A program made the position numbers and the translations under genes. Positions 7,098 to 24,167 of a DNA stretch of 64,000 nt are shown here, piece by piece. Under the pieces are notes generated by a model that was given only the letters and a program-made list of their open reading frames with translations, had not been told where the DNA came from and did no database searches. This stretch comes from an uncultured Gemmatimonadales bacterium. GTDB taxonomy: Bacteria; Gemmatimonadota; Gemmatimonadetes; Gemmatimonadales; GWC2-71-9. The stretch spans positions 192,001 through 256,000 of the forward strand of contig CAVYSW010000010.1 in the NCBI GenBank assembly GCA_963771275.1, written 5' to 3'. Positions within the stretch are counted from its first letter, which is position 1, and the number at the start of each line of letters is the position of its first letter.

Positions 7098-7529
7098 ATG
7101 GCCGACTTCGCGGCGCGTCTCCTGCTGGTCCGCGTAGACGACATGGTGTGCGCCGCCGAGGCGGCTGCCGTGCGCGAGATCCTGCCGATGCAGCGGGCGA
7201 CCAGAATCCCCGGGGCACCGCCGGCCGTCGCAGGGTTGATCAATGTACGCGGCGAGCTCGTCTCGCTGATCGACGGGGCGAGGCTGTTGGGTCGCGCGGC
7301 ACCCGAAGCCACCGGCGCGGTGGTACTGATGCGCTGGCGCGACACCGCGGTCGCCCTGACCGTGGACGAGGTGCTCGATCTCGTGCCGGTGCCGGCAACG
7401 GATCTGGCGGCGCGCGAGACGCTGGTGGGGATCGATCCGGCGGTCGTCCGAGCGGTGGGGCGCCACGGCGATCGCACGTTCGTCATACTCGACCTCGACG
7501 CCCTGCTGGGGCCGCTGCTGACCGCATAG
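7098..7529 (+). CDS. cheW: Chemosensory adaptor CheW (1 of 3)
   Basis: VREI, TRIPGAP..V.GLINVRGELVSLID, LTVDEV; ATG 1 nt after the rluD stop. Confidence 0.88.
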   Translation: MADFAARLLLVRVDDMVCAAEAAAVREILPMQRATRIPGAPPAVAGLINVRGELVSLIDGARLLGRAAPEATGAVVLMRWRDTAVALTVDEVLDLVPVPATDLAARETLVGIDPAVVRAVGRHGDRTFVILDLDALLGPLLTA

Positions 7530-7537
7530 GAGGACGC

Positions 7538-7900
7538 GTGAGCCACACGGTGCTGGTTTGCGATGATGCCATCTTCATGCGGACCATGATCTCCGATATC
7601 CTCACCCAGGCGGGCTTCGAGGTCGTGGGGGAGGCGGAGACGGGTCTGCAGGCCGTGGAGAAGTACACCCACCTCAAGCCGGATCTCGTGACCATGGACA
7701 TCGTGATGCCTGACATGGGGGGCATCGACGCGGTTCGCGAGATCGTCAAGGCCGATCCGGCCGCCCGGATTCTGATGTGCAGCGCGATGGGGCAGCAGGC
7801 GCTGGTGGTCGAGGCGATTCAGGCCGGCGCCAAGGATTTCGTCGTCAAGCCGTTCCAGCCGTCGCGCGTCCTGGAGGCCGTCCAGCGGGTCCTGGGGTAG
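7538..7900 (+). CDS. cheY: Single-domain response regulator CheY
   Basis: AGGAGG SD; VCDDAIFMR, DLVTMDIVMP.MGG, CSAMGQQ..V.EAI.AGAKDFVVKPF (Bacillus/Thermotoga-type CheY). Confidence 0.93.
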   Translation: MSHTVLVCDDAIFMRTMISDILTQAGFEVVGEAETGLQAVEKYTHLKPDLVTMDIVMPDMGGIDAVREIVKADPAARILMCSAMGQQALVVEAIQAGAKDFVVKPFQPSRVLEAVQRVLG

Positions 7901-7903
7901 GGC

Positions 7904-9766
7904 ATGGATCTGTCCCAGTACGCCGAGCTGTTCCGGTCCGAGACCCGGGACCATCTCAACACGCTCAACCGGCTGCTCCTGGAATGGGAGCAACGGCCCG
8001 ACCACCCCGAGCCGGTGGCCGGGATCTTCCGCGCGGTCCACACGATCAAGGGGATGGCCGCGACGATGGGGTACGCCCGGGTGGCGGACCTCGCGCACCG
8101 CGCGGAGACCCTGCTGGATCTGCTGCGCCAGTCGCAGCGTCCGGTCGTGGATGCCGAGCTGGAGCTGCTGTTCCGGACGGCGGACGTGCTGGAGGAGCTG
8201 GTCGAGGCGTCGGTGAGTGGGCGCGACGCGACGGTGGACGTGATGCCGCTGCTGGAGGCGCTGCAGGAGGCCGCGCGCGGGCACGAGAAGCCGGAGGAGC
8301 CGGGCCGCGCGCGCCGCCGCATCTCGTTCGTGGCCGCGCCGGTCGGCGTCGGTCGCCGGGTGCTGGTCGTCCTGCGCGCGGATTCCCCGCTCATGGGGGC
8401 GCGCGCGCTGCTCGTGCTCAAGCGCATGGAGCGGCTCGGTCCGGTGATCGGTGTCGAGCCGGCTCCGGCGGCGATCGAGAGCGAGGGGTTCGACGGCCGA
8501 TTCACGTTCCGGGTCGACACGACGGAGGGTGTCGAGCGGATCACGGCCGAGATCCGCTCGGCGGGCGATGTCGAGCAGGTGGAGGTGGATGTGGGGGAGT
8601 CGACCCCCGACGCCGAGCGCGACCCGGGGCGCAGCCGGCATATCCGGGTCGACCTGCGGCGGCTCGACGTGCTGATGAACGTGATCGGCGAGCTGGTGAC
8701 GGCGCGTGGACGACTCGAGCACATCGGCGTTGCCAGGAGCGACCCGGAGTTGGGCGAGAGCGTGGCCGCGGTTTCGGCGCTGACGTCCCGGCTCCAATCG
8801 GAGATCATCCAGGCCCGCATGACGCCGGTCTGGCAGGTGTTCGACCGGTTTCCGCGCCTCGTGCGGGACCTCAGCCGCCAGCTCGGCAAGCAGGTGGTGT
8901 TCCGGGTGGAGGGCAAGGAGATCGAGCTGGACCGCGCGATTCTCGACGAGATCGGCGATCCGCTGGTGCACCTGCTGCGCAACGCGGTGGATCACGGCAT
9001 CGAGACGCCGGAGCGGCGGCTGGCCGCGGGGAAGCCGCCGGAGGGGACCATCGTGCTGGCCGCGCTCCGCGACCGCGGGACGATCGCCATCATGGTGTCG
9101 GACGACGGTCGCGGCATCGACCGGGAGAAGATCCTCGCGGAAGCCAAGCGCCGCGGCGTGGCCGAGGCCGGCGTCGCCGAGCTGACCGACGATCAGCTGC
9201 TCCGGTTGCTGGCCAGCGCGGGGTTCAGCACGGCCCAGCAGGTGTCCGAGGTCTCGGGGCGGGGGGTGGGCGTGGACGTCGTGGTGACGCGGATGCGCGA
9301 GCTCGGGGGCTCCGTCGAGGTCAAGAGCACGCCGGGGGCGGGCACGACCTTCACGCTGCGCCTGCCGCCGACCCTGGCGATCGTGCGGGCGCTGCTCGCG
9401 CGGGTCGGAGCGGAGCGCTACGCCCTGCCGCTCACGCACGTGGCGGAGACCGTCGAGCTTGGCAGCTGGGCGATGACGAGCCTCGACGGGCGGGACGCCC
9501 TGCTCGTGCGCGACGAAGTCTTGCCGCTCGTGCACCTGCGCGAGCTCCTCCAGGTGGATGGCGAGCCGCCGGTCCAGCGTCCGGTGGTGGTCCTGCAGGT
9601 CGGCGACCGGCGCACGGGACTGGTGATCGATCGGATGGAGGGACAGCGGGAAATCGTCGTGAAGGCGTTCGTGCCCCCGCGCGGAACCCTGCGGATCTTC
9701 AGCGGTGCAACAGTGCTCGGGGATGGCGAGCCGGTACTGATCCTGGATGCGGGCGGGCTGGTGTGA
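7904..9766 (+). CDS. cheA: Chemosensory histidine kinase CheA (P1-P2-P3-P4-P5)
   Basis: Hpt FRAVHTIKGMA; dimerisation IRVD..RLD.LMN.IGELV; HLLRNAVDHGIE, DDGRG, GFST, GRGVG; C-terminal CheW-like domain. Confidence 0.96.
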   Translation: MDLSQYAELFRSETRDHLNTLNRLLLEWEQRPDHPEPVAGIFRAVHTIKGMAATMGYARVADLAHRAETLLDLLRQSQRPVVDAELELLFRTADVLEELVEASVSGRDATVDVMPLLEALQEAARGHEKPEEPGRARRRISFVAAPVGVGRRVLVVLRADSPLMGARALLVLKRMERLGPVIGVEPAPAAIESEGFDGRFTFRVDTTEGVERITAEIRSAGDVEQVEVDVGESTPDAERDPGRSRHIRVDLRRLDVLMNVIGELVTARGRLEHIGVARSDPELGESVAAVSALTSRLQSEIIQARMTPVWQVFDRFPRLVRDLSRQLGKQVVFRVEGKEIELDRAILDEIGDPLVHLLRNAVDHGIETPERRLAAGKPPEGTIVLAALRDRGTIAIMVSDDGRGIDREKILAEAKRRGVAEAGVAELTDDQLLRLLASAGFSTAQQVSEVSGRGVGVDVVVTRMRELGGSVEVKSTPGAGTTFTLRLPPTLAIVRALLARVGAERYALPLTHVAETVELGSWAMTSLDGRDALLVRDEVLPLVHLRELLQVDGEPPVQRPVVVLQVGDRRTGLVIDRMEGQREIVVKAFVPPRGTLRIFSGATVLGDGEPVLILDAGGLV

Positions 9767-9799
9767 GGGGCGAGTCCGAGACGCGGGGGAGAGCGGCGC

Positions 9800-10420
9800 A
9801 TGGATGACGTGCGAGATCTGAAGGAGCTGCAGCTGGACGCGCTGAAGGAGGTCGCGAACATCGGCGCTGGCCATGCCGCGACCGCGCTGTCCCAGCTCAC
9901 GAGCCGGCGCATCATGATCAACGTGCCGCAGATCACCATCTCGCGGCTCGAGGACGTGCCGGAGACGATGGGCAACCCGGAGTCGGTGGTGGCCGCGGTG
10001 CTGATGCACGTGCTCGGCGATCTCACCGGGCGCACGCTCCTGCTGTTTCCGGAGGAGAACGCGCACCTGCTGTGCGATCTGCTGCTGCGGCGGACGCCCG
10101 GGACGACGCGCACCTTCGGGGAGCTGGAGCAGTCCGGCCTCAAGGAGGCGGGGAACATCCTTGCCGGCGCGTACCTGAACGCGCTCTCCGATTTCATGGG
10201 GATGCTACTGCTGCCGTCGGTGCCGAGCCTCGTGGTGGATCTGTCGGCGGCGGTGCTCACCACCACGTATCTCAACTTCGGGCAGGATCGCGACTTCGTG
10301 TTCTGCATCGACACGGACTTCCACTTCACCGAAGCGGACCGCCGCCTGCAGGGGCACTTTCTCCTGCTGCCGGACCTGGCGTCCCTCAAGGCCATCTTCG
10401 ACGCCATTCGCCTGACGTGA
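9800..10420 (+). CDS. cheC: CheC-family phosphatase
   Basis: Two E-x-x-N active-site motifs (DALKEVANIGAGHAATALS; LKEAGNILAGAYLNAL). Confidence 0.92.
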   Translation: MDDVRDLKELQLDALKEVANIGAGHAATALSQLTSRRIMINVPQITISRLEDVPETMGNPESVVAAVLMHVLGDLTGRTLLLFPEENAHLLCDLLLRRTPGTTRTFGELEQSGLKEAGNILAGAYLNALSDFMGMLLLPSVPSLVVDLSAAVLTTTYLNFGQDRDFVFCIDTDFHFTEADRRLQGHFLLLPDLASLKAIFDAIRLT

Positions 10421-10421
10421 C

Positions 10422-13112
10422 GTGATGAACGCGCCGGCGCTCCCTTCCCAGGAGCGGGAGACCCTCCGCTCCTTCGCCCGCCGGATCGATCCCTCCGACC
10501 CCGGCGCGCACAACAATCTCGGCGTCCTCTATTATCAGAAGGGGCTGATCGACGAGGCGATCGAGTCGTTCGCCCGCGCGCTCGAGCTCGACCCGAAGAT
10601 GCTCATCGCGCGGCGCAACCTGGAGATCGCCTACAAGCAGACCGGCTACTACGACCGCCGGGTCGCCGAGCTGCAGGAGCGCCTGCGGGCCGATCCGGCC
10701 GATCGCGACGCCCGCTGGGAGCTCGGGCGCGCGTACGCCTCGCTGGGCCAGCACGACGCGGCCGCGCAGGAGTTTCAGGTCCTGGTGGATCGGAACCCCC
10801 AGGACCTGCCGGCGATCCTGCAAATTGGCCTGGCCGAGAAGCTGCGCGGGCGGCTCGAGCTCGCCACGGAGTGGTTCACCCGGGCGCGCGAGCTGGACGA
10901 CCAGAGCAGCGTGGTGCACTTCTACCTCGGCGAGACCCTGTACAACCGGGGACTGAACGCCGAAGCCCTGGCCGCGCTGGAGCGCGCCGTGGAGCTGAAC
11001 CCCGAGAACGCGGACGCGCACTATCTGCTGGCGTTCGTGTACGGCGATCTGCAGCGTGCCCAGGACGCGCGCGACGCCGCCGCCCGGGCCAAGCGTCTGA
11101 ACCCCACGCTGGGGCGGGCGCAAACCAATCTGTCGCTCGAGCGGTACGCCACGGCGCGCCGCGATGCCCCCGTGCGGGTGCCGCCGGCCCTGATGCCGGA
11201 GATCGCGGAAGGGCGGGCCCTGGCGCACTACAACCTCGGGCTCGCGTTCCGCCAGCAGGGCTACTACGCCGATGCGTTGCGTGAGTACCAGTTGGGGCTC
11301 GAGCGGGGCGAGGACCGGCGGCTCACGCTCCAGGCGATGGCGGAGGTGCAGTTGCTGCGGCGGGACTACCCGGCGGCGCGCGAGCTGTACGCCGGCCTGA
11401 CGGGCGAAGTGCCGGACGTGCCGAAGCTGTGGAACGAGTACGGCGTGGTGCTGCACCAGCTCGGTGAGCCCACCGAGGCGATCCGGGCGTACGGCCGCGC
11501 GCTGGATCTGGCGCCCGACTACGCGCTCGCGCGCAACAACCTCGCGGTCACGCTTGCCCATCAGGGCCGGCACGACGAGGCGGTCGAGGCCCTGCACGAC
11601 GCGCTCCGTGTCGGTCCGGAGCTCGCGGTCCCCCGGCTGAACCTCGGGCTGCTGCTGGCGCACCTGCGGCGCCACCAGCTCGGGCTGCAGGTCTACCGCC
11701 AGGTGCTGGATCTCGATCCCGCCTCCGCGCCGGCCTGGAACGGCATCGGCCTAGTGCTGAACGAGCTGGGGAGGGTGGCCGACGCGCGCAACGCGTTCGC
11801 GCGCGCGGTCGAGGCCGATCCCACCGCCGCCGAGGCGCACTACAACCTGAGCTTCGCGCTCTCCGCCCTGGGAGACTACGACGGCGCGTTGCGCGCGGTC
11901 ACACGGGCGCAGACACTCGATCCCTACTACGTCCCGCAGAAGTTCCGTCTCACCATCGACCTGCAATACGAGGACCCGACGATCGCGGTCGCGCCCGAGA
12001 TTTCGGCGGATGTCACCACAGATCTCGCGCCGCAGCCGCTCCAGTTCGATGCGGGAGTGCTCGACCAGATCTTCCGGGAGCTGGATCGGCCGTTACGGCG
12101 GCCGAGCACCGGACGGGTAACCGATCCGCTTGCCATGGCGCGGGACTACCTGTCGAAGGGCCTGCTGGAGCTCGCGGCCGCCGAGTGCAACCGCGCGGTG
12201 ACGCGGGGCGCCGACGAGACGGAGGCGCTGGCGCTGAGCGGGACGATCTTCGCGCGCCGGGGCCTGCACGGCGAGGCGCTTGAGCGGTTCCGCGCCGCCC
12301 GCGCGCGGGATGCGGAGCGGCACGACGCACGTCTCGGAGAGGGGCGCGCCCTGCTGGCGCTGGGGCGGGGGCGCGAGGCGTTGCCGGACGTGGAGCGCCT
12401 GGCGGCCGAAGCCGGCACGGACCCCGACGTGCTGATCGTCCTGGCCGAGGCGCGGCGCGCCGGGGGCGACCCCGGCGGTGCGCTGGAGGCGGTGCGGTGG
12501 GCGCGGGAGCGGGCGCCGGAGCGGGCCGACGTGCTCAAGCTCGAGGGCGACATCGCGTTCGGCCTGGGCGATCTCGGCGCGGCGCGCCACGCGTTCGAGG
12601 CGGCGGTGCGCCTCGATCCGCGCCTCGCGCAGGCGTTCGTGGCACTCGGCGCGGTCCACGAGCGGCGCGAGGACTGGCCGGCGGCGGAGGCCGCCTATCG
12701 CACGGCGCTGGACCGGCTGCCGACGTACAGCGAGGCGGCGGTGCTGCTCGCCCGGGTGCTGCGCCGCACCGGCCGGGCGCGCGTCGCGGTGAACCTGCTG
12801 GCGGACCTCCTGGGGAGCGATCCGTCGGACCTCGATGCGCTCCTCGCGCTGGCCCACGCGTTGGTGGACGACGGGCGCCTCGAGGCGGCGCTCCAGGCCT
12901 TCCACCGCGTGATGGCGCATGATCCCCAGCACGTCGCGGCGCACTTCTATGCGGGGGTCGCGCTGGCGCGGCTGCGCCGCTACAGTGAGGCGGTGCGCTG
13001 CTGGGAACGCGTCGTGGCGCTGGATCCGACCGGGCCCTACGCGCAGCGGGCGCGGCGGCACGCGCGGACGGCGCTGGACCTCAAGCACATCTTCCGGGTC
13101 GAGGCGGCCTGA
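10422..13112 (+). CDS. Large cytoplasmic multi-TPR protein (~896 aa)
   Basis: Many canonical TPRs (AHNNLG.LY...G...EA...F.RALELDP etc.) in blocks joined by Pro-rich linkers; no signal peptide. Confidence 0.85.
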   Translation: MMNAPALPSQERETLRSFARRIDPSDPGAHNNLGVLYYQKGLIDEAIESFARALELDPKMLIARRNLEIAYKQTGYYDRRVAELQERLRADPADRDARWELGRAYASLGQHDAAAQEFQVLVDRNPQDLPAILQIGLAEKLRGRLELATEWFTRARELDDQSSVVHFYLGETLYNRGLNAEALAALERAVELNPENADAHYLLAFVYGDLQRAQDARDAAARAKRLNPTLGRAQTNLSLERYATARRDAPVRVPPALMPEIAEGRALAHYNLGLAFRQQGYYADALREYQLGLERGEDRRLTLQAMAEVQLLRRDYPAARELYAGLTGEVPDVPKLWNEYGVVLHQLGEPTEAIRAYGRALDLAPDYALARNNLAVTLAHQGRHDEAVEALHDALRVGPELAVPRLNLGLLLAHLRRHQLGLQVYRQVLDLDPASAPAWNGIGLVLNELGRVADARNAFARAVEADPTAAEAHYNLSFALSALGDYDGALRAVTRAQTLDPYYVPQKFRLTIDLQYEDPTIAVAPEISADVTTDLAPQPLQFDAGVLDQIFRELDRPLRRPSTGRVTDPLAMARDYLSKGLLELAAAECNRAVTRGADETEALALSGTIFARRGLHGEALERFRAARARDAERHDARLGEGRALLALGRGREALPDVERLAAEAGTDPDVLIVLAEARRAGGDPGGALEAVRWARERAPERADVLKLEGDIAFGLGDLGAARHAFEAAVRLDPRLAQAFVALGAVHERREDWPAAEAAYRTALDRLPTYSEAAVLLARVLRRTGRARVAVNLLADLLGSDPSDLDALLALAHALVDDGRLEAALQAFHRVMAHDPQHVAAHFYAGVALARLRRYSEAVRCWERVVALDPTGPYAQRARRHARTALDLKHIFRVEAA

Positions 13113-13114
13113 GC

Positions 13115-14269
13115 ATGGCGATCGAGGGACCGCTCAAGGAGCTCGGACTGCACGACGTCTTCCACCTGCTCGACCTGAGCCGGAAGACGGGGGTGTTGCG
13201 CGTCACCTCGCCGCTGCGGCGGAACCAGGGAACGATCTACTTCGATCAGGGTGCCGTGGTCGCCGCCGAGATCCGCTCGAATCCGCACCCGCTGGGGGCG
13301 CTGCTGGTGCGCTCCGGGAAGATCACGGAGTCGGAGCTCGCGCGTGCGCGGGCGTGCCAGGAGGCGGGCGACACGCGGCGCCTCGGCGAGATCCTCGTCG
13401 AGCTGGGGGCCGTGGCGCAACGGGAGCTCGAGCGGCTCATCCGGATGCAGATCGAGGAGGTGGTCTTCGAGGTGATCGGTTGGCGCGAGGGCTACTTCTC
13501 GTTCGTCGAGGGCCCGCTCGGCGGTCTGCGGACCGAGGCGGGAATCCGGATCCCGACCGAGGCCCTGCTCATGGAGGGGGCGCGCCGGATCGACGAGTGG
13601 TCGCGGATCGAGCGGCAGGTGCCCCATCTTGGAGTCGTGCCGGCGCTGGCCACGGGAGCGGACCAGCGCGAGGCGGTGCTGGACCTCCGCCCGCCGGAAT
13701 GGGAAGTGCTGGCCCTGATCGACGGCACCCGTGACCTGCGCGAGATGGCGGCGGCCCTGGGGCGGTCGGAGTTCGACGTGGCCAAGACCGTGTTCGGCCT
13801 CTACAGCAGCGGCGTGGTGACGCTGCACGATCTCCGGCGGGCCGAGCTGGACGCGGCACGGCCGCAACGGGTCGAGGACACCCTGGCCGAGCTGGGCCGC
13901 CTGCTCGAAACGGGGGATGTCGAGACGGCGCGCCTCGAGGCGGAAGCGCTGGCGGCGGGCTACCCCAACGACCCGCGGACGCACCTCGTCGCCGCGCGGG
14001 TGCAGCTGGCCGCCGGGCGGGCGCGCGAGGCCGAGGCCGCAGCCCGACGCGCGCTGGGGCTCGACCCGGCCCTGGCGGATGCCCACCGGCTGCTCGGGGA
14101 CGCGCTGCTCGCGCAGGGACAATTCGGGGACGCCGCGGGGTGGTGGGAGCGCTGGCTCGCCCTGTCGCGCGAGGCGGGCGAGGATGGGCTCCTGCGCGGT
14201 CGCCTGACCAAGGCCCTGGCCGCCGCGCGCGCGCTGCAGGGCTACCTGAAGGAGCACCATGACGGATGA
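13115..14269 (+). CDS. DUF4388 (PATAN-like) + MshEN-like + wHTH-like + TPR protein
   Basis: MAIEGPLKELGLHDVFHLL..SRKTG.L, W.EG.F.F, ALLMEGARRIDEW; RLGEILVELG motif; C-terminal TPRs. Confidence 0.82.
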   Translation: MAIEGPLKELGLHDVFHLLDLSRKTGVLRVTSPLRRNQGTIYFDQGAVVAAEIRSNPHPLGALLVRSGKITESELARARACQEAGDTRRLGEILVELGAVAQRELERLIRMQIEEVVFEVIGWREGYFSFVEGPLGGLRTEAGIRIPTEALLMEGARRIDEWSRIERQVPHLGVVPALATGADQREAVLDLRPPEWEVLALIDGTRDLREMAAALGRSEFDVAKTVFGLYSSGVVTLHDLRRAELDAARPQRVEDTLAELGRLLETGDVETARLEAEALAAGYPNDPRTHLVAARVQLAAGRAREAEAAARRALGLDPALADAHRLLGDALLAQGQFGDAAGWWERWLALSREAGEDGLLRGRLTKALAAARALQGYLKEHHDG

Positions 14270-15053
14270 CATCCGGGCGCTGACCGCGGAGCTGGCGCGC
14301 GATCCGAACAGCCTGGCGTTCCTGCGGCTGGCGGAAGCGCTGCGGCTGCGGGAGCAGCTCGACGCGGCGGCGACGGTGGTGCGGGCCGGCCTCGAGCGTC
14401 ACCCCGATCGCGCCGACGCGCACGACCTCTATGCCCGGATCCTGGCCGATGCCGGGAGCGTCGACGCCGCGCGCGAGGCCTGGGAGCGGGCGTTCGTGCT
14501 GGACCCGCGGCACGTCGGCACGCTGAAGGGCCTGGCCTACCTGGCGTTTCGCGACGGCGACCTCGACGGCGCGCTCGACCGTCTGGAGAGCGCGTTGGGC
14601 GTGGATCCGACCGACGAGAGCGTGGTGCAGGCACTCCAGACGGTGCGGGAAGAGGCGGAGCGACGGCTCGCCGAGGAACGCATCCGTGCCGGGACCGACA
14701 TCTTCGCCGGCTTCGAAGGCGCGGAGCACGGGCTGCTCCTGGCGGACCGTCGCGGGCTCGTGCTCGGCGGAGCGCTGCGGAGCGTCACCGGCAGCGACGT
14801 GGCGGAGGAGGTGGCCGCGTACGTGGCCGGGGCCGCGCAGGAGGCCGAGCGCACGGCGCGGCTGCTGGAGCTCGGCGACTGGGGCGCAATCGTGGTCGAG
14901 GGGACGGCCGGCCACCTCCATCTGTCGGCACCGGCGCCGGACGCGCTGCTGCTGGTGAAGCGGGATCGTGCGGTGCCGGCGGGCCGCGTGGCGCTGCTGG
15001 CCCGGCGGGCGGCCGCGGCAGCCCGCGGCTGGCTCGAGGCGCAGCGCGGATGA
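14259..15053 (+). CDS. TPR + C-terminal roadblock/LC7 domain protein
   Basis: N-terminal DP.S.AF..LAEALR TPR region; C-terminal GLLLADRRGLVL roadblock-type beta pattern. Confidence 0.7.
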   Translation: MTDDIRALTAELARDPNSLAFLRLAEALRLREQLDAAATVVRAGLERHPDRADAHDLYARILADAGSVDAAREAWERAFVLDPRHVGTLKGLAYLAFRDGDLDGALDRLESALGVDPTDESVVQALQTVREEAERRLAEERIRAGTDIFAGFEGAEHGLLLADRRGLVLGGALRSVTGSDVAEEVAAYVAGAAQEAERTARLLELGDWGAIVVEGTAGHLHLSAPAPDALLLVKRDRAVPAGRVALLARRAAAAARGWLEAQRG

Positions 15054-15400
15054 CGGCCCATCTGGTGCGAATCCTCGACCAGGTGACCCGGGTCCGCGGT
15101 GTGCGCGGCGCGCTGCTCGTCGCCGCCGAGGACGGGCTCGTCATCGCCGAGTCCCTGATGGAGGGTGTGCGTGGCAACGCGCTGGCAGCGCTCGCCGCCG
15201 CGCTGGCCAGCCGCCTGGAGCGCGCGGCGGCGGCGACCGGGGTCGGGAGCGCGACCTTCGTGCACCTCGAGGCGGCGCGCGGCGCCCTGCTGCTGGTGCC
15301 GGCCGGGCAAGGCGTGCTCCTCGTCACCATCGCGGACTCCGTGGTCAACGTCGGCCTGGCCCGCCTCGAGATGCTGCGCGCGGTGGCGGAGGTTGCATGA
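15050..15400 (+). CDS. Roadblock/LC7 (MglB/MglC-like) protein
   Basis: 116 aa; GVRGALLVAAEDGLVIA...NVGLARLEM is a typical roadblock signature. Confidence 0.85.
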   Translation: MTAHLVRILDQVTRVRGVRGALLVAAEDGLVIAESLMEGVRGNALAALAAALASRLERAAAATGVGSATFVHLEAARGALLLVPAGQGVLLVTIADSVVNVGLARLEMLRAVAEVA

Positions 15401-15869: not shown

Positions 15870-16469
15870 ATGTCGCTCGTCAACTTCACGACCCGCGAAA
15901 TCACCTGCAAGATCGTCTACTACGGCCCGGGCCGCTCCGGGAAGACGACGAACCTGCAGTACATCTACGGACGGGTGCCCGAAGAGCGGCGGGGGCGGAT
16001 GGTCTCGCTGGCGACGCAGACGGACCGCACCCTGTTCTTCGACTTCCTGCCGCTCGAGCTGGGATCCATCTCGGGCTTCGCCACCCGGTTCCAGCTGTAC
16101 ACGGTGCCCGGTCAGGTCTACTACAACGCGACGCGCAAGCTCGTGCTGCAGGGCGCGGACGGTGTGGTGTTCGTGGGTGACAGCCAGGCCCGCCAGCTCG
16201 ATGAGAACCTGGAGAGCCTGCAGAACCTCCAGGTGAACCTGCTGGAGCACGGCATCGATGTGCGCGAGGTGCCGTACGTGCTCCAGTACAACAAGCAGGA
16301 CCTGCCGCGCGATCTCATCCTGACGCCGGAGGAGCTCGACGATCAGCTCAATTTCCGCGGGGTGCCGAGTTACGGTGCGGCGGCGGTGACCGGTCAGGGG
16401 GTGTTCGAGACGCTGCGCGCCATCTCGGAGCGGGTGCTGCGCAAGCTGAGCGAGGACGAACCCGGGTGA
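15870..16469 (+). CDS. mglA: MglA-family small Ras-like GTPase
   Basis: [66 protein letters not shown]. Confidence 0.95.
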
Positions 16470-18415
16470 CGGCAGAGCTGAACCCTCGGTTCACGTTCGA
16501 CGCGTTCATCGTCGGTCCGAGCAACCGGCTGGCGGTGGCGGCGGCGCGCACCGTGGCGGAGAGCCCGGGCACCGCCTACAACCCGCTGTTCATCTACAGC
16601 GCGAGCGGCCTGGGGAAGACCCACCTGCTCATGGCGGTCGGCACGCATGCGCGATCGCTCTCCCCCACGCTGTCGGTCGCGTACCTCACGCTCGAGGAAT
16701 TCGTCGAGGCGTTTCACGCCGCAGTCGCGGCCGGCCAAGGGGAGGCGTTCGGCCGCCGCTTCGACGCGGTGGACATCGTGCTGATCGATGACGTGCAGTT
16801 CCTGACGACCCGGCTCGAGACGCAGGCGGAGCTGCTGCGTCTCGTCACGCAGCAGCTCGAGGCGGGGCACCAGGTGGTGCTGTCCAGCGACCGCCCGCCG
16901 CAGGAGATCGAGCAGCTCGACGAGCGGCTCATCTCGCGCTTCGCGGGCGGCCTGGTGGTGGACATCGGACCGCCGGAGTTCGAGACGCGGCTCGCGATCC
17001 TGCGCCGCAAGGCGGAGGAGCGCGGCGTCGATTTCGAGCGGGCGATTCTGTCGGCGGTCGCGGCGTTCGAGGCGCGCAACGTGCGCGAGCTGTTGGGTCT
17101 GTTGAACCGGCTCATCGCGTTCCAGGCCGTGAATGAGGGCACGTTGACCACCGAGGGCGTGCGCACGCTGCTGGGTCTGGAGGAGACGGAGCCGCCCGTC
17201 GAGCCGACCGAGCCGGTGGCGCCGGGCGCGGCGGACGAGTTCGCCGAGTTCGTGTCGACGGTCGGGGCGGCGCTCGCGCAGCAGATGGACTCGTGGCGCC
17301 GCCGGCTGCACGAGGCCCGGGCGTATTGGGAGGGTCGGGGGTACCGGGTACAGCGGATCACCGGTCCGCTCGAGCAGGACACGCCCGTCGGGGCCGAGGT
17401 GCTGATCAAGCAGTTCGAGGAGGACGTGGAGCGCCTGCAGGCACTCGAGCAGGAGATGACGCTGCTCGAGCCGGCGCGGGCGGGCGACCCGGTGTTCCGC
17501 GATCCGGATCGGGTGGCGGATGCCGAGGCGCTGGTGCACGCGGCCAAGGAGGGGCTGGCACCGCCTCCCGGGCCCTCCGCGGCGTGGGCATTCGAGGACT
17601 TCGTGGGCACCGGGTCGAACCAGCTCGCCCTCACCGCCGCCCGCGCGGTGGCCGAGCAGCCGGGTACGATGTACAACCCGCTCGTCGTGATCGGATCCAC
17701 GGGCCTCGGCAAGACCCACCTGCTGCACGGCATCGGGCACGCGCTCTCCGCCGCCCCGGGCTCCCTGGTGGCGTGCCTGTCCGCCCAGGACTTCCTCGAC
17801 GAGCTGGTGCAGGCGATGGAGCGCCACCGGGTCGATGCATGGCGCTCGCGGTATCGCCGGGCCACGGCGTTCCTGCTGGACGACATCCACCTGCTGGCGC
17901 ACAAGGAGCAGTCGCAGGAAGAGCTGTTCCATCTGTTCAACGCGCTGCTCGACACGCAGCGGCAGCTGGTGTTCACGGCCAACGTGCCGCCGCGCGAGCT
18001 GGAGGGCATCGACGACCGGCTCGTGACGCGACTCGGTGGTGGCCTGGTGACCGAGCTGCAGCCGCCCGACCGGGAGCTGCGGCTGGCGGTCGTGACGCGC
18101 GAGCTCAAGGGCCGGCAGGGCGAGGTGGATCCCGATCTCGCGGCCTACCTCGCCGATCGGCCGGCGACGTCGCTCCGCACCGTGACGGGGACGGTCCAGC
18201 GCGTCGTGGGCGAAGCCGAGCTGCAGGGGGTGTCGCCGTCGGTGGCCCAGGCCCGCGCCCTGCTCGAGGGGACGCCCGAGCCGGCGCGCCGCGCGACGCC
18301 GCGGCTCCGGACGAGCGGCATCGTGGTCTCCCCGAGCGGCGGCGTGCGCAGCCGGGAGAAAGTGATCTGGCGGTGGCCCAACATCACCGACCGGATCATC
18401 GAGGACGTCGGCTGA
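16466..18415 (+). CDS. Protein with two tandem DnaA/Hda-type AAA+ domains, lacking the DnaA N-terminal and DNA-binding domains
   Basis: Domain 1: [50 protein letters not shown]. Domain 2: FEDFV...SN.LA, YNPL...[33 protein letters not shown]. No domain IV HTH. Confidence 0.85.
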
Positions 18416-20034
18416 TGGCGATCAAGGGCAGCCTCAAGGAAGCGTCCCTGCCGGACGTGCTGCAGCTGCTCGCGCTCGGCCAGAAGACGGGATGCCTGTC
18501 GATCGCGGACCGGAACAACTTTGGCTACATCTACTTCGACCGCGGCCGGATCTCGTACGCGTCGATCGTCAACCGGCGGGACCGGCTGGGCGACATCCTC
18601 GTCAAGGCCGGGAAGCTGAAGGTGGAGCAGTTGGAGGCCGCGATCGCGCGTCAGGAGCGCGAGCGCGATCGGCGGCTCGGGCAGATCCTGATTGCCGAGG
18701 GGATGATCTCGCGGGCCGACCTGGAGCGCTACATGCGGCTCCAGATCGAGGAAGCCGTCTACTTCCTGTTCACGTGGACCCAGGGGACGTTCAACTTCGA
18801 GTCGGATGTCCGGCCCGACCACGAAGAGTTTCTCGTGTCGATCAACCCGGAGTCGCTGCTGCTCGAAGGCGCCCGCCGGGTGGACGAGTGGAGCCTGATC
18901 GAGAAGAAGATCCCGTCGTTCGACCTGATCTTCTCGGTGGAAGCCGAGCGGCTGCAGGCTTCCGAGGTGGAGCTGACGCCGGAGCAGGCGCAGATCCTCA
19001 GGCTGATCGACGGCAAGCGGGATGTGACGCGGGTGACCGAGGACTCGGGCCTGGTGGAGTTCGACGTGGGGAAGGCCCTCTATGGGCTGATCTCCGCCGG
19101 CTTCGCGCATCGGGTCGGGCGGAGCCAGGCGCCGAAGGTGCAGGAGGTCAACGAGAGCCGGATTCAGGAGCACCGCAACCTCGGCGTCGCGTTCTACAAG
19201 ACGGGCATGCTGGACGAGGCCGCCCGCGAATTCCGGCGCGTCACGGATCTGCGGTCGAACGACGGGGGTGCGCATTTCCATCTGGGGCTCGTCGCGCTGC
19301 GCCAGGCGCGGTGGCGTGATGCGGAGGCGTCGCTGCGCCAGGCCGCCGAGCTGCTGGGCGCCCGCCCGGGCGTGCTCCACAATCTCGCGCTCGCCTTCGA
19401 GCAGCTCGGCTTCCTCGATCGGGCCGACTCCGCGTACGGCGATGCGGCCGGCCGCGCCCGACACGATCCCCGCATTCTGATCGGGTGGGGGATCGCCGCG
19501 CTGCAGCGCGGGGACTTCCAGGTGGCCGAGGGGCGGCTCGACCGCGCGCGGGAAGTCACGGGGGAGAAGCCGCTGCCGGCGGTGTGGTACTGGGGTCGGG
19601 CGCTCGCGGCGGCCGGCCAGGACGCGTTCGATCAGGCCGAAGCGTTCCTCCGGGAAGGGCTGGAGCGGCACCCGCGGCATCCGATTCTGACGAACAACCT
19701 GGCGGCCCTCGTAGAGCTCGTCGGCGACGCGGCGCAGGCCGAGGAGCTGCTGCGCGACGCGCTCGCCGACGAGCCCGCCGTCCCGCAACTGTCGAAGAAC
19801 CTGGGCGACCTGCTGTACCGGTCGGGGCAGTACGACGACGCGGCCAGCGCCTACGCGCGGGCCGTCCGTCTCCAGCCGGACCTGGGCGACGACGTGTACT
19901 TCAAGCTGGGCAACATCGCCTACCGGCGCGGCGAGCGGGAGCAGGCCGCGGCCTACTGGAAACAGTCCCTCGAGCTGAATCCCAGCCACGAGTTGGCGCG
20001 GACCAACCTCGACACGCTCAGCGCGCTCGTCTGA
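18415..20034 (+). CDS. DUF4388 + tandem MshEN-like + TPR protein
   Basis: [19 protein letters not shown]...QKTG.L, RLGDILV/RLGQIL motifs, WTQGTFNF, SLLLEGARRVDEW; C-terminal TPRs; TGATG overlap. Confidence 0.85.
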   Translation: MAIKGSLKEASLPDVLQLLALGQKTGCLSIADRNNFGYIYFDRGRISYASIVNRRDRLGDILVKAGKLKVEQLEAAIARQERERDRRLGQILIAEGMISRADLERYMRLQIEEAVYFLFTWTQGTFNFESDVRPDHEEFLVSINPESLLLEGARRVDEWSLIEKKIPSFDLIFSVEAERLQASEVELTPEQAQILRLIDGKRDVTRVTEDSGLVEFDVGKALYGLISAGFAHRVGRSQAPKVQEVNESRIQEHRNLGVAFYKTGMLDEAAREFRRVTDLRSNDGGAHFHLGLVALRQARWRDAEASLRQAAELLGARPGVLHNLALAFEQLGFLDRADSAYGDAAGRARHDPRILIGWGIAALQRGDFQVAEGRLDRAREVTGEKPLPAVWYWGRALAAAGQDAFDQAEAFLREGLERHPRHPILTNNLAALVELVGDAAQAEELLRDALADEPAVPQLSKNLGDLLYRSGQYDDAASAYARAVRLQPDLGDDVYFKLGNIAYRRGEREQAAAYWKQSLELNPSHELARTNLDTLSALV

Positions 20035-20846
20035 TGGTGGCGAGCGAGGACCCCGGACTCCCGGCGCTCCTGGCGCAGATCGCGCGGGCGCGCGGCCTCG
20101 ACTGCGAAGCGTACAAGCAGAGTTGCCTGCGGCGGCGGCTCGCCGTCCGGATGCGCGCACGCGGGGCGCACACCTACGCCGACTACGCCCGGGTGCTCGC
20201 GGCCGACGGAGGCGAGTACGATCGGCTGCTCGACGCCCTGACGATCAACGTGACGAAGTTCTACCGCAATCACGAGACGTGGGATGCGCTGGCGGAACGC
20301 TACCTGCCGGACGTGTGGACGAGGCGACGCGGTGCGGTGCGCTGCTGGTCTGCGGGGTGCGCGTCCGGCGAGGAGCCGTACACCATGGCGATCCTGCTGC
20401 TCGAGTGCGCGCGGCGGCTCGGCGAGAGCGGGCCGCTCCAGGCGAGGGTGGACGCCACCGACCTCGACCGCGTGAGCCTCGAGCGCGCCGCGGTGGGACG
20501 CTATCGCGCGGCCGCCTTCGAGGAATTGCCGCCGGCGCTCGCCGACCGGTACTGCGCGCCCGGCGAAGTCCGGGAGATCGCGCCGGCGGTCCGCGCGCTC
20601 GTGCGGTTCCAGCAGCACGACCTGCTGCGGGACCCGCCGCCGCGGGCACCCTATGACGTCGTGCTCTGCCGCAACGTGGTGATCTACTTCGATCGCGCGA
20701 CGCAGGACCGGTTGTTCGCCGGGTTCGCCGACGCGCTGGCGCCCGGCGGGATCCTGGTGCTCGGCAAGGTCGAGACCTTGCTGGGGGCGGCGCGCGGCCG
20801 CCTGCGCCTCGACGACACCCGCGAGCGCATCTACCGGCGTCCATGA
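20034..20846 (+). CDS. cheR: Protein-glutamate O-methyltransferase CheR
   Basis: LTINVTKFYRN, WSAGCASGEEPYT, ATD, CRNVVIYF. Confidence 0.94.
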   Translation: MVASEDPGLPALLAQIARARGLDCEAYKQSCLRRRLAVRMRARGAHTYADYARVLAADGGEYDRLLDALTINVTKFYRNHETWDALAERYLPDVWTRRRGAVRCWSAGCASGEEPYTMAILLLECARRLGESGPLQARVDATDLDRVSLERAAVGRYRAAAFEELPPALADRYCAPGEVREIAPAVRALVRFQQHDLLRDPPPRAPYDVVLCRNVVIYFDRATQDRLFAGFADALAPGGILVLGKVETLLGAARGRLRLDDTRERIYRRP

Positions 20847-21337
20847 CGGGGTCGCCCGGGAATCAGGCGGTGGGGCTCGGGCACTACGCGGTGGCCCGGG
20901 GTGGCGGCACCCTGGCCTGCCTCGGTCTCGGGAGCTGCGTGGCCGTGGTGCTGCATGACCCGGAGGCGCAGGTCGGCGGGCTCGCGCACGTGGTGCTCCC
21001 GTCGACCTCGCTCTCCCGCGACCGCTCCAACCCCGGCCGCTTTGCCGAGACGGCCGTGCCCCTGTTGATCGCCGAGACGCTGCGCGCGGGGGCAGTGCGC
21101 GGGCGCCTCTCGGCACGCCTGGTGGGTGGGGCCAGCATGTTCACCAACCTGGTGCCCGCCGGCGCGGTGCAGATGGGCCAGCGGAACGTCAATGCGTGTC
21201 GCGCCGCGCTGGAGGCGGCGGCGATCCCGATCACGGGAGAGGCGGTGGGAGGCGAGATCGGGCGCTCGGTCTGGCTGGTCGTGGAGTCGGGCGCGCTCAC
21301 CGTGCGGTCCGTCGGACGTGAGCCCGAACGCCTCTAG
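20843..21337 (+). CDS. cheD: Chemoreceptor glutamine deamidase CheD
   Basis: [35 protein letters not shown]. Confidence 0.92.
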
Positions 21338-22412
21338 CGGGGGCCCGGCCCGCACGGTGCTCGTCGTGGACGACAGCGCGCTGATGCGCCGCGTGCTGAG
21401 CGACCTGATCGAGCAGTCGGGGCGCTATCGCGTCGTCGCCGCCGCGCGGGACGGGATGGACGCGCTGGAGAAGGTCCACCGGTACCGCCCGGACGTGGTG
21501 ACGATGGACCTCGAGATGCCGGAGCTCGACGGACTGGGCGCGATCGGCTACATCATGAGCGAGGCGCCGACGCCGATCGTCGTGGTGAGCGCCTATGCCG
21601 GACCGGGAACCGCCACGGCGATCCGCGCGCTCGAGCTCGGGGCGGTCGAGATCGTCGCGAAGCCCGGGGACCGGCAGCGGGCCACCCTCGAGGCGATCGG
21701 CCCGGCCCTGCTCACGGCCCTCGATGCGGCCGTCGCCGCGGACGTCGCGCGCGTGCCGGTGCTGGCCCGGCGTCCGACGCCGGCGCTGCCGATCCGGTCG
21801 CACGGGGTGGCGGAGATGCAGGGGCGCGCGCGGGTCGCGGTGGCGATCGCCGCGAGCACCGGCGGCCCGCGAGCGCTTGCCGAAGTGATCCCGCGCCTCG
21901 CACCCGAGGGGAACGCCGGCGTGCTGATCGTGCAGCACATGCCGCCCAAGTTCACCCGCAGTCTCGCAGAGCGACTCGATCAGGGCAGTGCGCTCCGCGT
22001 GGTCGAGGCCGACGACGGCGTGCCGTTCCTCAGCGACACGGCGTACATCGCCCCGGGCGATTATCATATGCGGGTGGAGCGTTCCAGCGACGGGCCGCAG
22101 GTGCGGCTCGACCAAACGCCGCCCCTGTGGGGGGTGCGGCCGGCCGCCGATCCGCTGTTCCGGTCCGTGGCGGCGGCGTTCGGCGCGCGCGCCGTAGGGG
22201 TGGTGCTGACCGGAATGGGCCGGGATGGTGCGGCAGGGCTGCGCGCGATCCGGGATGCCGGTGGCGCGGGCATCGCCCAGGATCGCGCCACGGCCGTGAT
22301 CTACGGCATGCCACAGGTCGCGGTCCAACTCGGCGGCGTGGAGACCATCGCGCCGCTGGATGCGATCGCCGCGCACATCGCGGCGGCGGTGGGGCGCCGG
22401 GCGGGTCCGTGA
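21318..22412 (+). CDS. cheB: Protein-glutamate methylesterase CheB (REC + methylesterase)
   Basis: [19 protein letters not shown]; catalytic [21 protein letters not shown] start at 21318. Confidence 0.95.
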
Positions 22413-22837
22413 CGACCTGCCTGCTCGTGCGCAGCGCGGACCGCACGGTCGCCCTCCCGCTGGAGGACCTCGAGCAGGTGCTCACGATCGACACCACGGT
22501 TCCCGCTCCCGGTCTGGTGCCCGCCGTCCGCGGCGTGGTCGCGGTGCGGGACGGCCTCGCGCCGGTGGTCCATCTCGGCGCGCTGATCGCCCGGAGTGCG
22601 GCACCGGCCGAGCGCGGCAGCGTGGGGGTCGTGGTGCTTGCGGGGACGCGGCGGGTGGTGCTCGAAGTGGACGAGGCTGTGGATCTCGTGCGACAGGTTC
22701 CCGAACCGCTGCCGCCCGAGTGGGGGACGGGGTGGGCATCGGGCGGCGTCCGGTGGGCGGGGGCGCTGGTCCCCGTCGTGGAGGTGGGCGCGCTCGTCGA
22801 GCGTATGGGATCGCGCAGCGCGGAGGCAGCCGCATGA
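22409..22837 (+). CDS. cheW: CheW-like adaptor (2 of 3, divergent)
   Basis: ALPL..LEQV, V.GVV.VR..LAPVVHL, LEVDE; GTGA overlap with cheB. Confidence 0.72.
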
Positions 22838-23319
22838 GCACGGGCGATGACGTCCAGCTGGTGGTGTTTCGTGTCGGGTCGCAGGCGTTCGCCGTCAACA
22901 TCTTCGAGGCCGAGCGCATCCTGCGATATCAGGAGCCCACGCCCCTGCCCAGCGCCCCGGCCTTTCTGGAAGGGGTCTTTGTGTTCGGCGAGCAGGTGAT
23001 TCCGCTGGTGGATCTGCGGAAGCGGCTCGGCGCGCCCGCGCCGATCCGCGACGAGACGCGGCTCGTCGTGCTTGCCCTCGATGTCGGGCCGGTCGGCATC
23101 GTGGTGGATGCCGTGCTCGCCGTGCGCAAGGTGGCGGCCGACGCGATCAGGCCGCCGTCGGGCCTCGTCAAGGGACTCGCCGCCGAATACGTGAACGGCA
23201 TCGCCATCGTTGACGGCCGCACGGTCGTGATCCTCGCCGCGACGCGACTGCTCTCGTCCACCGAGCAGGTCAGCGTGCGCGACCTTCTCGTGGAGGCGGG
23301 TCCATGGGCGAATCGATAG
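22834..23319 (+). CDS. cheW: CheW adaptor (3 of 3)
   Basis: QLVVFRVG.Q.FAVNI, TPLP.AP.FLEGV, IPLVDLRKRL, GIVVDAV. Confidence 0.9.
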   Translation: MSTGDDVQLVVFRVGSQAFAVNIFEAERILRYQEPTPLPSAPAFLEGVFVFGEQVIPLVDLRKRLGAPAPIRDETRLVVLALDVGPVGIVVDAVLAVRKVAADAIRPPSGLVKGLAAEYVNGIAIVDGRTVVILAATRLLSSTEQVSVRDLLVEAGPWANR

Positions 23320-24167
23320 CCGCGGCCCTGCGCGCCGCGTACGAAGGGATCGCGCGCCAGCTCGAGCAGGTGCGCTCCTCCGCGGAGCGCGAAGTGGTCA
23401 AGCGCGACATCATCGCGCTGTTCAAGACGGTCGATCAGGGTCTCGCCGACCTGGCGGCGCTGAAGGAGGACATCCGGGTCCTGGTGGACAAGTACAAGCA
23501 GCTCCAGGTGGGGCAGAGCGGCGACCGCGCGCCGCAGTTCACGGGCCAGGTGCCGGCCGTCCACACGAGCCACATCGACGCCTCCACGCTGATCGAGAAG
23601 GGATGGCACCTGATCTCGCTGGGGGACTATGACGGGGCGATTCAGGCGCTGGAGAAGGCGCTGCACTATGCGCCGGGTGACACGCAGGCCGAGTCCCTGC
23701 TGGGGTGGGCGCAAATGCGCCACGAGCAGTATGACGAGGCGCTGCAGAGCTTCCAGCGCGTCCTGACAAAGGAGCCGGCCAACGCGCTGGCACGGATCAA
23801 CGTCGGGTACATCTGCCTGAAGAAGCGGATCTTCGGCGAGGCCATCGAGCACCTGTCCAAGGCGATCCGGCTCGACAACGACAAGAAGGCGACGCTGTAC
23901 GCCCACTACTATCTCGGGCTGGTCTATCTCGAGCGGGAGATGTACGAGGACGCCCAGACCTTCTTCCGGAAGACGCTGGCGCTCGGCCCCAATCTGATCG
24001 AGGCCTATTTCGAGCTGGGACGGGCCCAGTGGTATGGTGGCGACCCGGCGGGAGCGAAGCAGACGTGGGCCGACGGGGTCAAGGCGAACCGGTTCACCCC
24101 CTGGGGCGCGCGCTGCCAGGAGGCGCTCGATCTCGTGGCCCAGGGCCAGGAGCCCCCGCGCTCGTAG
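23304..24167 (+). CDS. Coiled-coil + TPR protein
   Basis: N-terminal coiled coil followed by about 5 TPRs; no signal peptide. Confidence 0.8.
   Translation: MGESIAAALRAAYEGIARQLEQVRSSAEREVVKRDIIALFKTVDQGLADLAALKEDIRVLVDKYKQLQVGQSGDRAPQFTGQVPAVHTSHIDASTLIEKGWHLISLGDYDGAIQALEKALHYAPGDTQAESLLGWAQMRHEQYDEALQSFQRVLTKEPANALARINVGYICLKKRIFGEAIEHLSKAIRLDNDKKATLYAHYYLGLVYLEREMYEDAQTFFRKTLALGPNLIEAYFELGRAQWYGGDPAGAKQTWADGVKANRFTPWGARCQEALDLVAQGQEPPRS

Follow-up and report, generated by a model that had tools for sequence, protein, structure and literature searches.

In Myxococcus, the chemosensory system Frz acts on the small GTPase MglA and on MglB, although the genes lie apart, and MglA together with the tetratricopeptide repeat (TPR) protein SgmX stimulates type IV pili, according to the accessible portions of the literature on this organism. 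In Synechocystis, a PATAN domain alone is described, in the available parts of the published work, as binding PilB1 and PilC and reversing phototaxis, and MglA/MglB homologues are often encoded near PATAN genes. Here we analyse a row of 18 genes in a 64,000-nucleotide stretch of DNA (hereafter, the window) from the genome of an uncultured Gemmatimonadales bacterium of soil. The row is a new combination of these known themes, the Frz-MglA system and the cyanobacterial PATAN regulators, to which it adds a probable cyclic di-GMP (c-di-GMP) input and a double ATPase derived from DnaA. With moderate confidence, we read it as one conserved operon of the order containing this genome, in which a chemotaxis-type (Che) pathway and c-di-GMP would provide the input to an MglA/PATAN polarity module steering type IV pili.

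The G+C content of the window is about 72%, so that open reading frames (ORFs) alone are uninformative, and genes were defined via third-position G+C and matches to Pfam and NCBIfam. All 18 genes lie on the + strand between positions 7098 and 24167, co-oriented and tightly packed, and each of those named in an initial annotation of the sequence was recovered with Pfam and NCBIfam. So was the division of the Che pathway that it had described, with cheW-Y-A-C on one side and cheR-D-B-W-W on the other of a block of TPR, PATAN, Roadblock, MglA, ATPase and PATAN genes. The genes are as follows (aa, amino acids; numbers after family names are E-values):

7098-7529, + strand: CheW 1, 143 aa; Pfam CheW 1.1e-25
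7538-7900, + strand: CheY, 120 aa, a single receiver domain; Pfam Response_reg 2.1e-29
7904-9766, + strand: CheA histidine kinase, Hpt-P2-dimerisation-HATPase-CheW, all five Pfam domains matched
9800-10420, + strand: CheC-type phosphatase of phosphorylated CheY (CheY-P); Pfam CheC 1.1e-20, NCBIfam CheC_Thtogales 7e-50, under the equivalog cut-off
10422-13112, + strand: large TPR protein, 896 aa; many TPR families, e.g. TPR_2 7e-74; position conserved in related loci
13115-14269, + strand: PATAN1, a DUF4388/PATAN domain with an MshEN_N-type insertion, then TPR, 384 aa; DUF4388 3.9e-32
14259-15053, + strand: TPR-Roadblock/LC7 protein, 264 aa; TPR families and Robl_LC7 1.2e-6, with a weak match to an MglB model, 3.7e-6
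15050-15400, + strand: small Roadblock/LC7 protein, 116 aa; Robl_LC7 3.3e-13, best solved match 7f8m_A 8.6e-9
15397-15864, + strand: MglB-like Roadblock protein, 155 aa; Robl_LC7 1.8e-5
15870-16469, + strand: MglA, Ras-like GTPase, 199 aa; solved MglA chains ~3.5e-78
16466-18415, + strand: tandem DnaA-type AAA+ ATPase, 649 aa; Bac_DnaA 1.4e-105 in two stretches, no Bac_DnaA_C
18415-20034, + strand: PATAN2, a DUF4388/PATAN domain with an MshEN_N-type insertion, a winged-helix-like domain and TPR, 539 aa; DUF4388 1e-37
20034-20846, + strand: CheR methyltransferase; Pfam CheR 1.7e-45, CheR_N 2.3e-11
20843-21337, + strand: CheD deamidase; Pfam CheD 9.6e-26, NCBIfam CheD_Thtga 6.6e-39, under the cut-off
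21357-22412, + strand: CheB methylesterase (REC and CheB_methylest); CheB_methylest 4.7e-63, Response_reg 2.2e-23; start perhaps at 21318
22409-22837, + strand: CheW 2, 142 aa, divergent; Pfam CheW 1.8e-15
22834-23319, + strand: CheW 3, 161 aa; Pfam CheW 1.7e-30
23304-24167, + strand: terminal TPR protein, 287 aa; TPR_2 1.3e-25

Across the 17 internal junctions, spacing varies between -16 and +33 bp, and the genes overlap at 10 of them, junctions between modules included. A consensus scan found no promoter-like site in the gene row, and three terminator-like sites were seen where 3.7 would be expected from shuffled sequences. As an rluA-type gene ends just 1 bp 5' of the ATG of CheW 1 at 7098, the transcription unit may begin further upstream than CheW 1.

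The same arrangement is found in many relatives. An initial scan turned up 15 loci in Gemmatimonadota that share this gene order; we then took the surroundings of ATPase homologues in 40 genomes, which belong to three families, and in these 40 loci (three duplicate earlier ones) the order is collinear in every case, between the same rluA-type and Peptidase_MA genes, with proteins that are 25-93% identical. Because gene order recurs in 40 of 40 loci across this range of identity, the arrangement exceeds chance. The Mgl/PATAN/DnaA-like block has a che half on each side in 33 of the 40, so that the linkage to che proposed at the outset withstands the gene-neighbourhood comparison; these 33 include L035, where the second half is fragmented, and L060, which has neither Roadblock genes nor CheR. 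Among the other seven, one is cut by a contig end, L048 has the upstream half and CheD only, three (L029, L047 and L062) have only CheY, a partial CheA and CheC, and two (L032 and L061) have no che genes at all, as is also the case of L007 in the first set. No CheW domain was matched anywhere in the genome of L029/L004, and in the L007 genome another small contig encodes a CheA-REC-CheB of a different kind, with 33-39% identity. In L035 (G385:C4), CheD, CheB, CheW2 and the last TPR gene match in fragments only, which suggests a frameshifted or decaying second che half in that genome. Orthologues of the terminal TPR protein, 42-76% identical, are retained even in che-less loci.

Other relatives have lost different portions of the row. 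We examined five genomes without the ATPase, three from the family of the window genome, plus G036 and G071. The former three have no match to the CheA of the row and, for MglA, a paralogue only (55-64% identity). G036 keeps the row through CheB, without the ATPase gene, and its CheD and the genes after CheB gave no match, while G071, which lacks the Mgl block and the ATPase, retains cheW-Y-A-C, PATAN2, cheR, cheB and the terminal TPR gene. In G248 and G335, the ATPase and PATAN2 stand alone between the same flanks. Since relatives lose che, Mgl or the ATPase individually (L007, L032, L061, G036, G071, G248, G335), the modules are separable. The initial annotation had spoken of one integrated switch: the genomic linkage behind that idea holds, whereas the system itself is modular, its modules having been lost separately. 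PATAN2 is the only gene present in every variant of the cluster that we have seen; its N-terminal domain occurs in 67 of 101 sampled genomes, all of them in the class of the window genome, and in none of the 19 genomes of other classes. In a sample of 401 Gemmatimonadota genomes, whose tallies include the unpublished G156, the ATPase (hits at E<1e-70 covering both halves) is missing from just ~7 of the 165 genomes in the window's own family; it occurs in most genomes of a second family, in 5/5 of a third and in parts of others, and in 0/19 of the genomes in other classes.

Judging from its sequence, the MglA of the row is genuine, because solved MglA chains (6hjh_A, 6h17_A and 5ymx_A) match residues 1-194 at ~3.5e-78, followed by 3t12_A at 3.8e-66, and because it has both TVPGQ and the intrinsic arginine finger beside the G2 threonine, the Group 1 hallmarks given in the accessible text of Wuichet & Sogaard-Andersen 2014. 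Its 'YTVPGQ' aligns with the 'YTVPGQ' of 6hjh_A, so that the G3 motif is TVPGQ and not DxxGQ, and the intrinsic arginine belongs to a string, 'TDRTLFFDF', that aligns with the same string in 6hjh_A. The MglB-like gene, 5 bp upstream of mglA, has 1j3w_A (annotated as MglB) as its best solved match at 2.6e-8 and other MglB chains at ~1e-6, a weak similarity, and the 116-aa protein is, on sequence, a generic Roadblock protein. The genome also encodes a second MglA paralogue (G000:C3:160088-160759), 51% identical over a gapped alignment, and genomes without the whole cluster keep an MglA of this second type, 55-64% identical. MglA-MglB-PATAN gene neighbourhoods were reportedly already noted by Makarova 2006. 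As far as their accessible text and table go, Wuichet & Sogaard-Andersen 2014 describe PATAN genes as sometimes adjacent to MglA of Group 1 and of Group 5, and their Table S2 has a Chloroflexi row '<PATAN<MglA<MglB<MglB' and a row 'PATAN>MglA>-PATAN>' for Gemmatimonas aurantiaca, which is the local order of the Roadblock-less variant in G066 and L060. Their MglA/MglB/PATAN trio is thus the same as ours, but the table and text, in those portions, give no che or DnaA-like gene, and 'DnaA' is missing from the main text. The initial annotation knew of no characterised system with this composition, which agrees with our own literature search, conducted mostly without subscription journals, which found no description of a Che-MglA-PATAN-DnaA-like operon or of a tandem DnaA-type signalling ATPase; the local PATAN-MglA-PATAN order of G. 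aurantiaca had already been tabulated.

One close likeness is with the Frz-MglA/MglB(/MglC/RomR)-SgmX system of Myxococcus, which also has a Che-type pathway, MglA, more than one Roadblock protein and large TPR proteins, with type IV pili as the likely target. The che and mgl genes, which are not neighbours there according to the available accounts, form one operon here. Unlike Frz, with its hybrid CheA-REC (FrzE) and cytoplasmic MCP (methyl-accepting chemotaxis protein) FrzCD, the CheA of the window has no receiver domain and the row has no MCP gene, while PATAN-MshEN proteins and the tandem DnaA-type ATPase come in addition. The cyanobacterial Tfp-type systems with PatA-type regulators (PixG, PixE, LsiR) likewise encode, in the accessible descriptions, a Che-like pathway with a PATAN protein. 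In the window, unlike the cyanobacterial PATAN-REC proteins, CheY is separate and PATAN is fused to a winged-helix-like domain and TPR and contains the MshEN_N insertion; MglA, Roadblock proteins and the ATPase are further differences from the cyanobacterial systems. Actinobacterial conservons (CvnA-D), as far as the available literature describes them, also combine a sensor kinase, a Roadblock protein and an MglA-family GTPase in one operon, but theirs are a membrane histidine kinase and an MglA of another group, without PATAN, Che adaptation genes or a DnaA-type ATPase.

The Che pathway, complete but for an MCP, contains CheA with Hpt, dimerisation, HATPase and CheW-like domains, CheW, CheY with its phosphorylation residues, and both CheR and CheB. 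Of all proteins in the row, CheY is conserved best (76-94% identity, with a mean column identity of 90%, the CheA of the same loci being 37-76% identical), and residues D9, D10, D54, S82 and K104 are invariant in its 38 orthologues. According to Pfam, CheA ends in its CheW domain, and neither a Frz-type hybrid CheA-REC nor an MCP gene is present in the 18-gene row; the three MCPsignal matches of the genome are all on contig C3. The best solved relatives of CheA are 3ja6_C (E 4e-95) and 1b3q_A (8e-95), which we take to be Thermotoga maritima CheA. The best NCBIfam models for the Che proteins are Thermotogales or haloarchaeal, CheC_Thtogales at 7e-50, CheD_Thtga at 6.6e-39 and CheA_Halo at 2e-135, all under their equivalog cut-offs. 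In the Wuichet & Zhulin 2010 scheme, class F1 is said to be recognised by CheA/CheW/CheB/CheR profiles plus CheC and CheD; when we call the present pathway 'F1-like', this describes its composition (CheC and CheD present) and is not a tested class. In two of the variants, L064 (G036) and L065 (G071), CheA aligns as residues 1-130 and 231-620 and as residues 1-105 and 231-620, respectively, without a P2 region.

This Che system is not, on the available gene content, the flagellar one. The window genome is 96.7% complete, and neither FlhA nor flagellin had a match in it; five other cluster-bearing genomes gave an FlhA match in 0/5. The CheA of the row is the sole H-kinase_dim match in the genome. 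By contrast, flagellated relatives have extra CheA: G066, G135 and G102 have three H-kinase_dim matches each (the third in G066 is marginal, E 6.7e-4), and in G066 one CheA belongs to the cluster and another lies ~48 kb from flhA. The non-flagellate G040 has the CheA of the cluster only. The window genome does have a pilB(MshEN+T2SSE)-pilT-pilC locus, and genes for a PAS kinase and a sigma-54 regulator come after it.

Both PATAN proteins are likely c-di-GMP sensors, as their motif and predicted fold suggest. The label given to them initially, DUF4388-MshEN, stands as to the presence of an MshEN_N-type motif, the match to NCBIfam NF053729 and the fold, but not as to a whole domain: Pfam MshEN (PF05157) has no match in PATAN1 or PATAN2 at E<=0.01, and only the N-terminal 53-residue unit of MshEN is present. 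The matches to PF14332 (DUF4388) spread profile positions 1-122 over protein residues 4-163, which reveals a helical insertion, and it is inside this insertion that each protein holds two tandem 24-residue MshEN_N motifs (residues 59-82 and 89-112 of PATAN1, 57-80 and 87-110 of PATAN2). The pattern was slightly relaxed from RLGxx(L/V/I)(L/V/I)xxG(L/V/I)(L/V/I)xxxxLxxxLxxQ, and among 20 proteins scanned with it only PATAN1 and PATAN2 matched. The spacer between the motifs has 6 residues as against 5 in MshE, position 11 of motif 1 is Lys in the window PATAN1 and PATAN2 and Lys/Arg in most orthologues, and the first residue of PATAN1 motif 1 is Pro or Arg; G59, L62, Q80, R87, G89, L92 and Q110 are invariant in 23 aligned sequences (13 PATAN2 and 10 PATAN1). 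NF053729 ('c-di-GMP_motif, MshE-related', cut-off 38) scores 48.5 bits with PATAN2 and 39.5 bits with PATAN1.

In an AlphaFold model of PATAN2 residues 1-240 (pLDDT 87.7), the insertion consists of four helices and superposes on MshE bound to c-di-GMP (5htl_B) with Z 6.7 and rmsd 1.5 A over 59 residues at 39% identity; the GSPIIB domain of Thermus PilF (8pdk_A) gives Z 6.2. Foldseek aligns the insertion with MshE over 56 columns at rmsd 1.3 A, with an E of just 0.12, the match being short. The c-di-GMP element is thus real at the level of both motif and fold; in MshE/PilB, too, two tandem 24-residue RLGxx..Q motifs form a four-helix unit. Unlike in MshE/PilB, the motifs sit within PATAN, and the ATPase is a separate DnaA-type AAA+ protein instead of a fused T2SSE, save in two relatives discussed below. 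The tandem motif was defined for MshEN by Wang 2016, and the accessible part of that work includes a row 'REC - DUF4388' for a Myxococcus protein (Supplementary Table 4), so that an MshEN motif in a DUF4388 protein is not new in itself. Neither PATAN protein has the PatA-type architecture, as Pfam finds no Response_reg match in them and TPR repeats form the C-terminus of both. There are 10 matches to GGDEF in the genome. Residues 161-236 of PATAN2 form a winged-helix-like domain, and a resemblance of the PATAN beta-core to Roadblock/longin-like folds, raised by GATOR1/SEA rows in Foldseek, was dropped, as VIA-align places those matches on residues 161-236, off the core.

The tandem ATPase shares its fold and motifs with DnaA domain III and Hda, the initiator clade of AAA+ proteins. 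Its model (pLDDT 84) has two AAA+ modules with lids, a helical middle domain at approximately residues 262-363 and a tail of low confidence, whose last 45 residues contain one short helix; the N-terminal half superposes on domain III of Bacillus subtilis DnaA (8bv3_A) with TM 0.94 and rmsd 1.7 A at 42% identity. Domains I, II and IV are absent, the protein beginning at domain III (profile position 1 corresponds to residue 5) and giving no match to Bac_DnaA_C. Unlike DnaA, it has two AAA+ modules with a conserved helical domain of ~110 residues between them, carries a conserved C-terminal motif and stands in a signalling context. Among 33 family members, 33-89% identical to the query, the Walker A Lys and Walker B Asp are (nearly) invariant in both halves, the (near-)invariant residues being G50, K51, D108 and D109, then G413, G415, K416 and D472, and also R175, R207 and R571; E258, F262 and W277 are examples of conserved positions of the middle domain, and the C-terminal motif reads SREKxVWxWP...DRxIEE. 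Identity is 36% between the two halves and 41-44% between each half and domain III of the genome's own DnaA, which points to an old duplication of this domain. The DnaA model TIGR00362 scores 497.7 bits, above its cut-off of 343.9, and Hda models match too; annotation pipelines are prone to call the protein 'DnaA', as the source names do, and the label is misleading.

The ATPase is tied to the c-di-GMP unit by a 1-nt overlap between its gene and that of PATAN2, by fusions of MshEN with the ATPase and by co-loss of ATPase and insertion. Residues 55-108 of PATAN2, exactly the MshEN-type insertion, are precisely deleted in the ATPase-less G036 and G071 as well as in G047, G052 and G073 of the same genera, while the insertion is present in G248, G066, L007 and L047, variants that have the ATPase. 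Among relatives with fusions, P0184 and P0202 have an N-terminal MshEN domain (E 3e-19 and 8e-19) and P0225 a C-terminal receiver domain (1.5e-11). P0184 (1990 aa) and P0202 (1876 aa) are giant proteins in which the first DnaA-type module lies near residue 185; Pfam counts two Bac_DnaA stretches in each, listing the first only, and P0202 has a second AAA-type match near residue 1630. Another protein, P0181 (673 aa), has two Bac_DnaA ATPase domains followed by a Bac_DnaA_C helix-turn-helix, a duplicated motor that kept its DNA-binding domain. Scans of metagenome contigs for the fused P0202 and P0225 gave no confirmed locus, and the nearest genome match to P0225 is G335 (52% identity), the two-gene version without REC domain. 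All named members of the family belong to the Gemmatimonadota, as does the one with a taxon name among 10 distant relatives. A scan of genome contigs, which reaches close relatives only, returned Gemmatimonadota as well as single-domain DnaA/Hda-like matches without synteny in Thiotrichales. In the 56 ATPase-bearing loci examined, the gene stands beside PATAN2 (or at a contig end) and never beside replication genes.

Taking these elements together, we propose that PATAN2 would act as a hub, with the Che, Mgl and ATPase modules as separable inputs, and that the property under control is most likely where or when type IV pili act, i.e. the polarity or the reversals of surface motility. By homology, MCPs encoded elsewhere and the three CheW proteins would control CheA, CheR, CheB and CheD would adapt the receptors, and CheC would dephosphorylate CheY-P. 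CheY-P may then act on the core formed by the PATAN, Roadblock and MglA proteins; complex prediction for CheY and full-length PATAN2 gave an ipSAE of 0.00 in both runs, made with no controls, and counts neither for nor against binding. By analogy with Myxococcus, MglA-GTP, held back by MglB and the two further Roadblock proteins, would mark a pole and act through the TPR proteins. PATAN1 and PATAN2 would read c-di-GMP via their insertions and couple to the pilus motor as the Synechocystis PATAN does. As to the ATPase, gene overlap, co-loss and fusions suggest an ATP-driven switch or assembly factor working with the c-di-GMP insertion of PATAN2.

We favour type IV pilus control because no flagellar genes were found, because the genome has a pil locus, and because of the precedents of MglA-SgmX in Myxococcus and of PATAN-PilB1/PilC in Synechocystis. 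Among the outputs listed in the initial annotation, surface motility is, for these reasons, the best supported, while the pointer to budding or division is the dcw cluster downstream. Several observations nonetheless weigh against pilus polarity as the output. The cluster is not adjacent to the pil genes, and pilB is on another contig; the dcw division cluster, instead, lies ~3 kb downstream of the operon. The pair formed by the ATPase and PATAN2 persists in the flagellated G248, where no CheA was found, so that its core function need not involve Che or MglA. PATAN-PilB binding is known from cyanobacterial PATAN-REC proteins only, and here PATAN is fused to TPR. The second MglA paralogue of the genome could be the general polarity GTPase. 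The 40 loci were picked for the presence of the ATPase gene, which makes their linkage counts conditional on it, and the co-loss of ATPase and insertion is seen in two genera that belong to the same family and could go back to one event. The F1 label leans on best matches below curated cut-offs.

A more daring proposal, which we advance only tentatively, centres on the pair formed by the tandem ATPase and PATAN2. This would be a new c-di-GMP-gated ATP switch, in which the AAA+ core of a replication initiator has been reused as a signalling motor and onto which the Che and MglA modules were bolted in one order of Gemmatimonadota. The nucleotide state of the motor would be set through the MshEN_N insertion of its partner or, in relatives, through a fused MshEN or receiver domain.

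It is also conceivable, if rather unlikely, that the same integrated system has another output, such as pole identity for division, budding, polar growth, adhesion or exopolysaccharide export. The direct downstream neighbour of the operon is the dcw cluster (mraW at 27201 to ftsZ at 41240), nothing in the row is pilus-specific, and the occurrence of the ATPase-PATAN2 pair in G248, flagellated and with no CheA found, suggests a more basic cellular role. Yet the genes that flank the row (ileS, dksA-type, rluA-type, dcw) have housekeeping roles and may be adjacent to it without a functional link, MglA, TPR effectors and PATAN have each been linked to type IV pili in studied organisms, as the available reports have it, and the genome combines pil genes, no flagellar genes found, and a sole CheA, encoded in this very row.

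We find it improbable that a Che operon, an Mgl/PATAN operon and an ATPase/PATAN pair merely stand side by side in the row, as independent units that do not signal to one another and that genomic inertia has kept together. The single losses of modules are what such a patchwork would allow: the core without che in L007, L032 and L061, che with PATAN2 in G071, the row without ATPase in G036, and ATPase with PATAN2 in G248 and G335. However, the che halves stand on either side of the core (both present in 33 of 40 loci, both missing in two and also in L007), gene overlaps at 10 of 17 junctions extend across the limits between modules, PATAN2 remains within the che operon of G071 though the Mgl block and the ATPase have gone, and CheY is, at 76-94% identity, the most conserved protein of the row. 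Equally improbable is that the tandem protein still acts on replication, as an Hda-like or DnaA-titrating regulator through which the operon would couple sensing and polarity to the cell cycle, since its closeness to true DnaA domain III (greater than that between its halves), its score with TIGR00362, its retained arginine-finger, sensor and Walker motifs and the division cluster nearby have to be set against the loss of domains I, II and IV, a genomic position beside PATAN2 (or a contig end) and never beside replication genes in 56 loci, the signalling domains (MshEN or REC) fused to it in relatives and its loss along with the c-di-GMP insertion of PATAN2.

The locus bears on a matter that is unresolved in Myxococcus, the wiring from the chemosensory system to MglA, whose parts are scattered across the genome there, according to the accessible literature, and are found here in one operon. 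The natural variants missing each module in turn make this wiring testable by comparison and genetics. The locus also offers a candidate c-di-GMP receptor, the MshEN unit inserted in a PATAN domain, and a possible non-replicative role for the DnaA-type AAA+ core.

The surroundings of the row have some features of their own. A Peptidase_MA_2 gene (24029-25021) follows the terminal TPR gene in nearly every related locus, the two-gene variants included, and in its longest ORF overlaps it by 139 nt; it may be a member of the system or a conserved flank. The division and cell-wall cluster, dcw, extends over 27201-42460, ~3 kb downstream of the operon, and comprises an mraW-type methylase gene (27201), a penicillin-binding protein (PBP) gene with a PASTA domain, genes for three Mur ligases, mraY, ftsW, ftsA and ftsZ (41240). 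Two ORFs, 25266-27131 (621 aa) and 43967-46177 (736 aa), measured from stop to stop, have high third-position G+C and no Pfam match at E<=1e-5. Elsewhere in the window (46178-49188 and 62762-64000) are genes for an FtsY-type GTPase of the signal recognition particle (SRP) pathway, for RecG and for a ComEC-type competence protein, the last of which runs off the window end.

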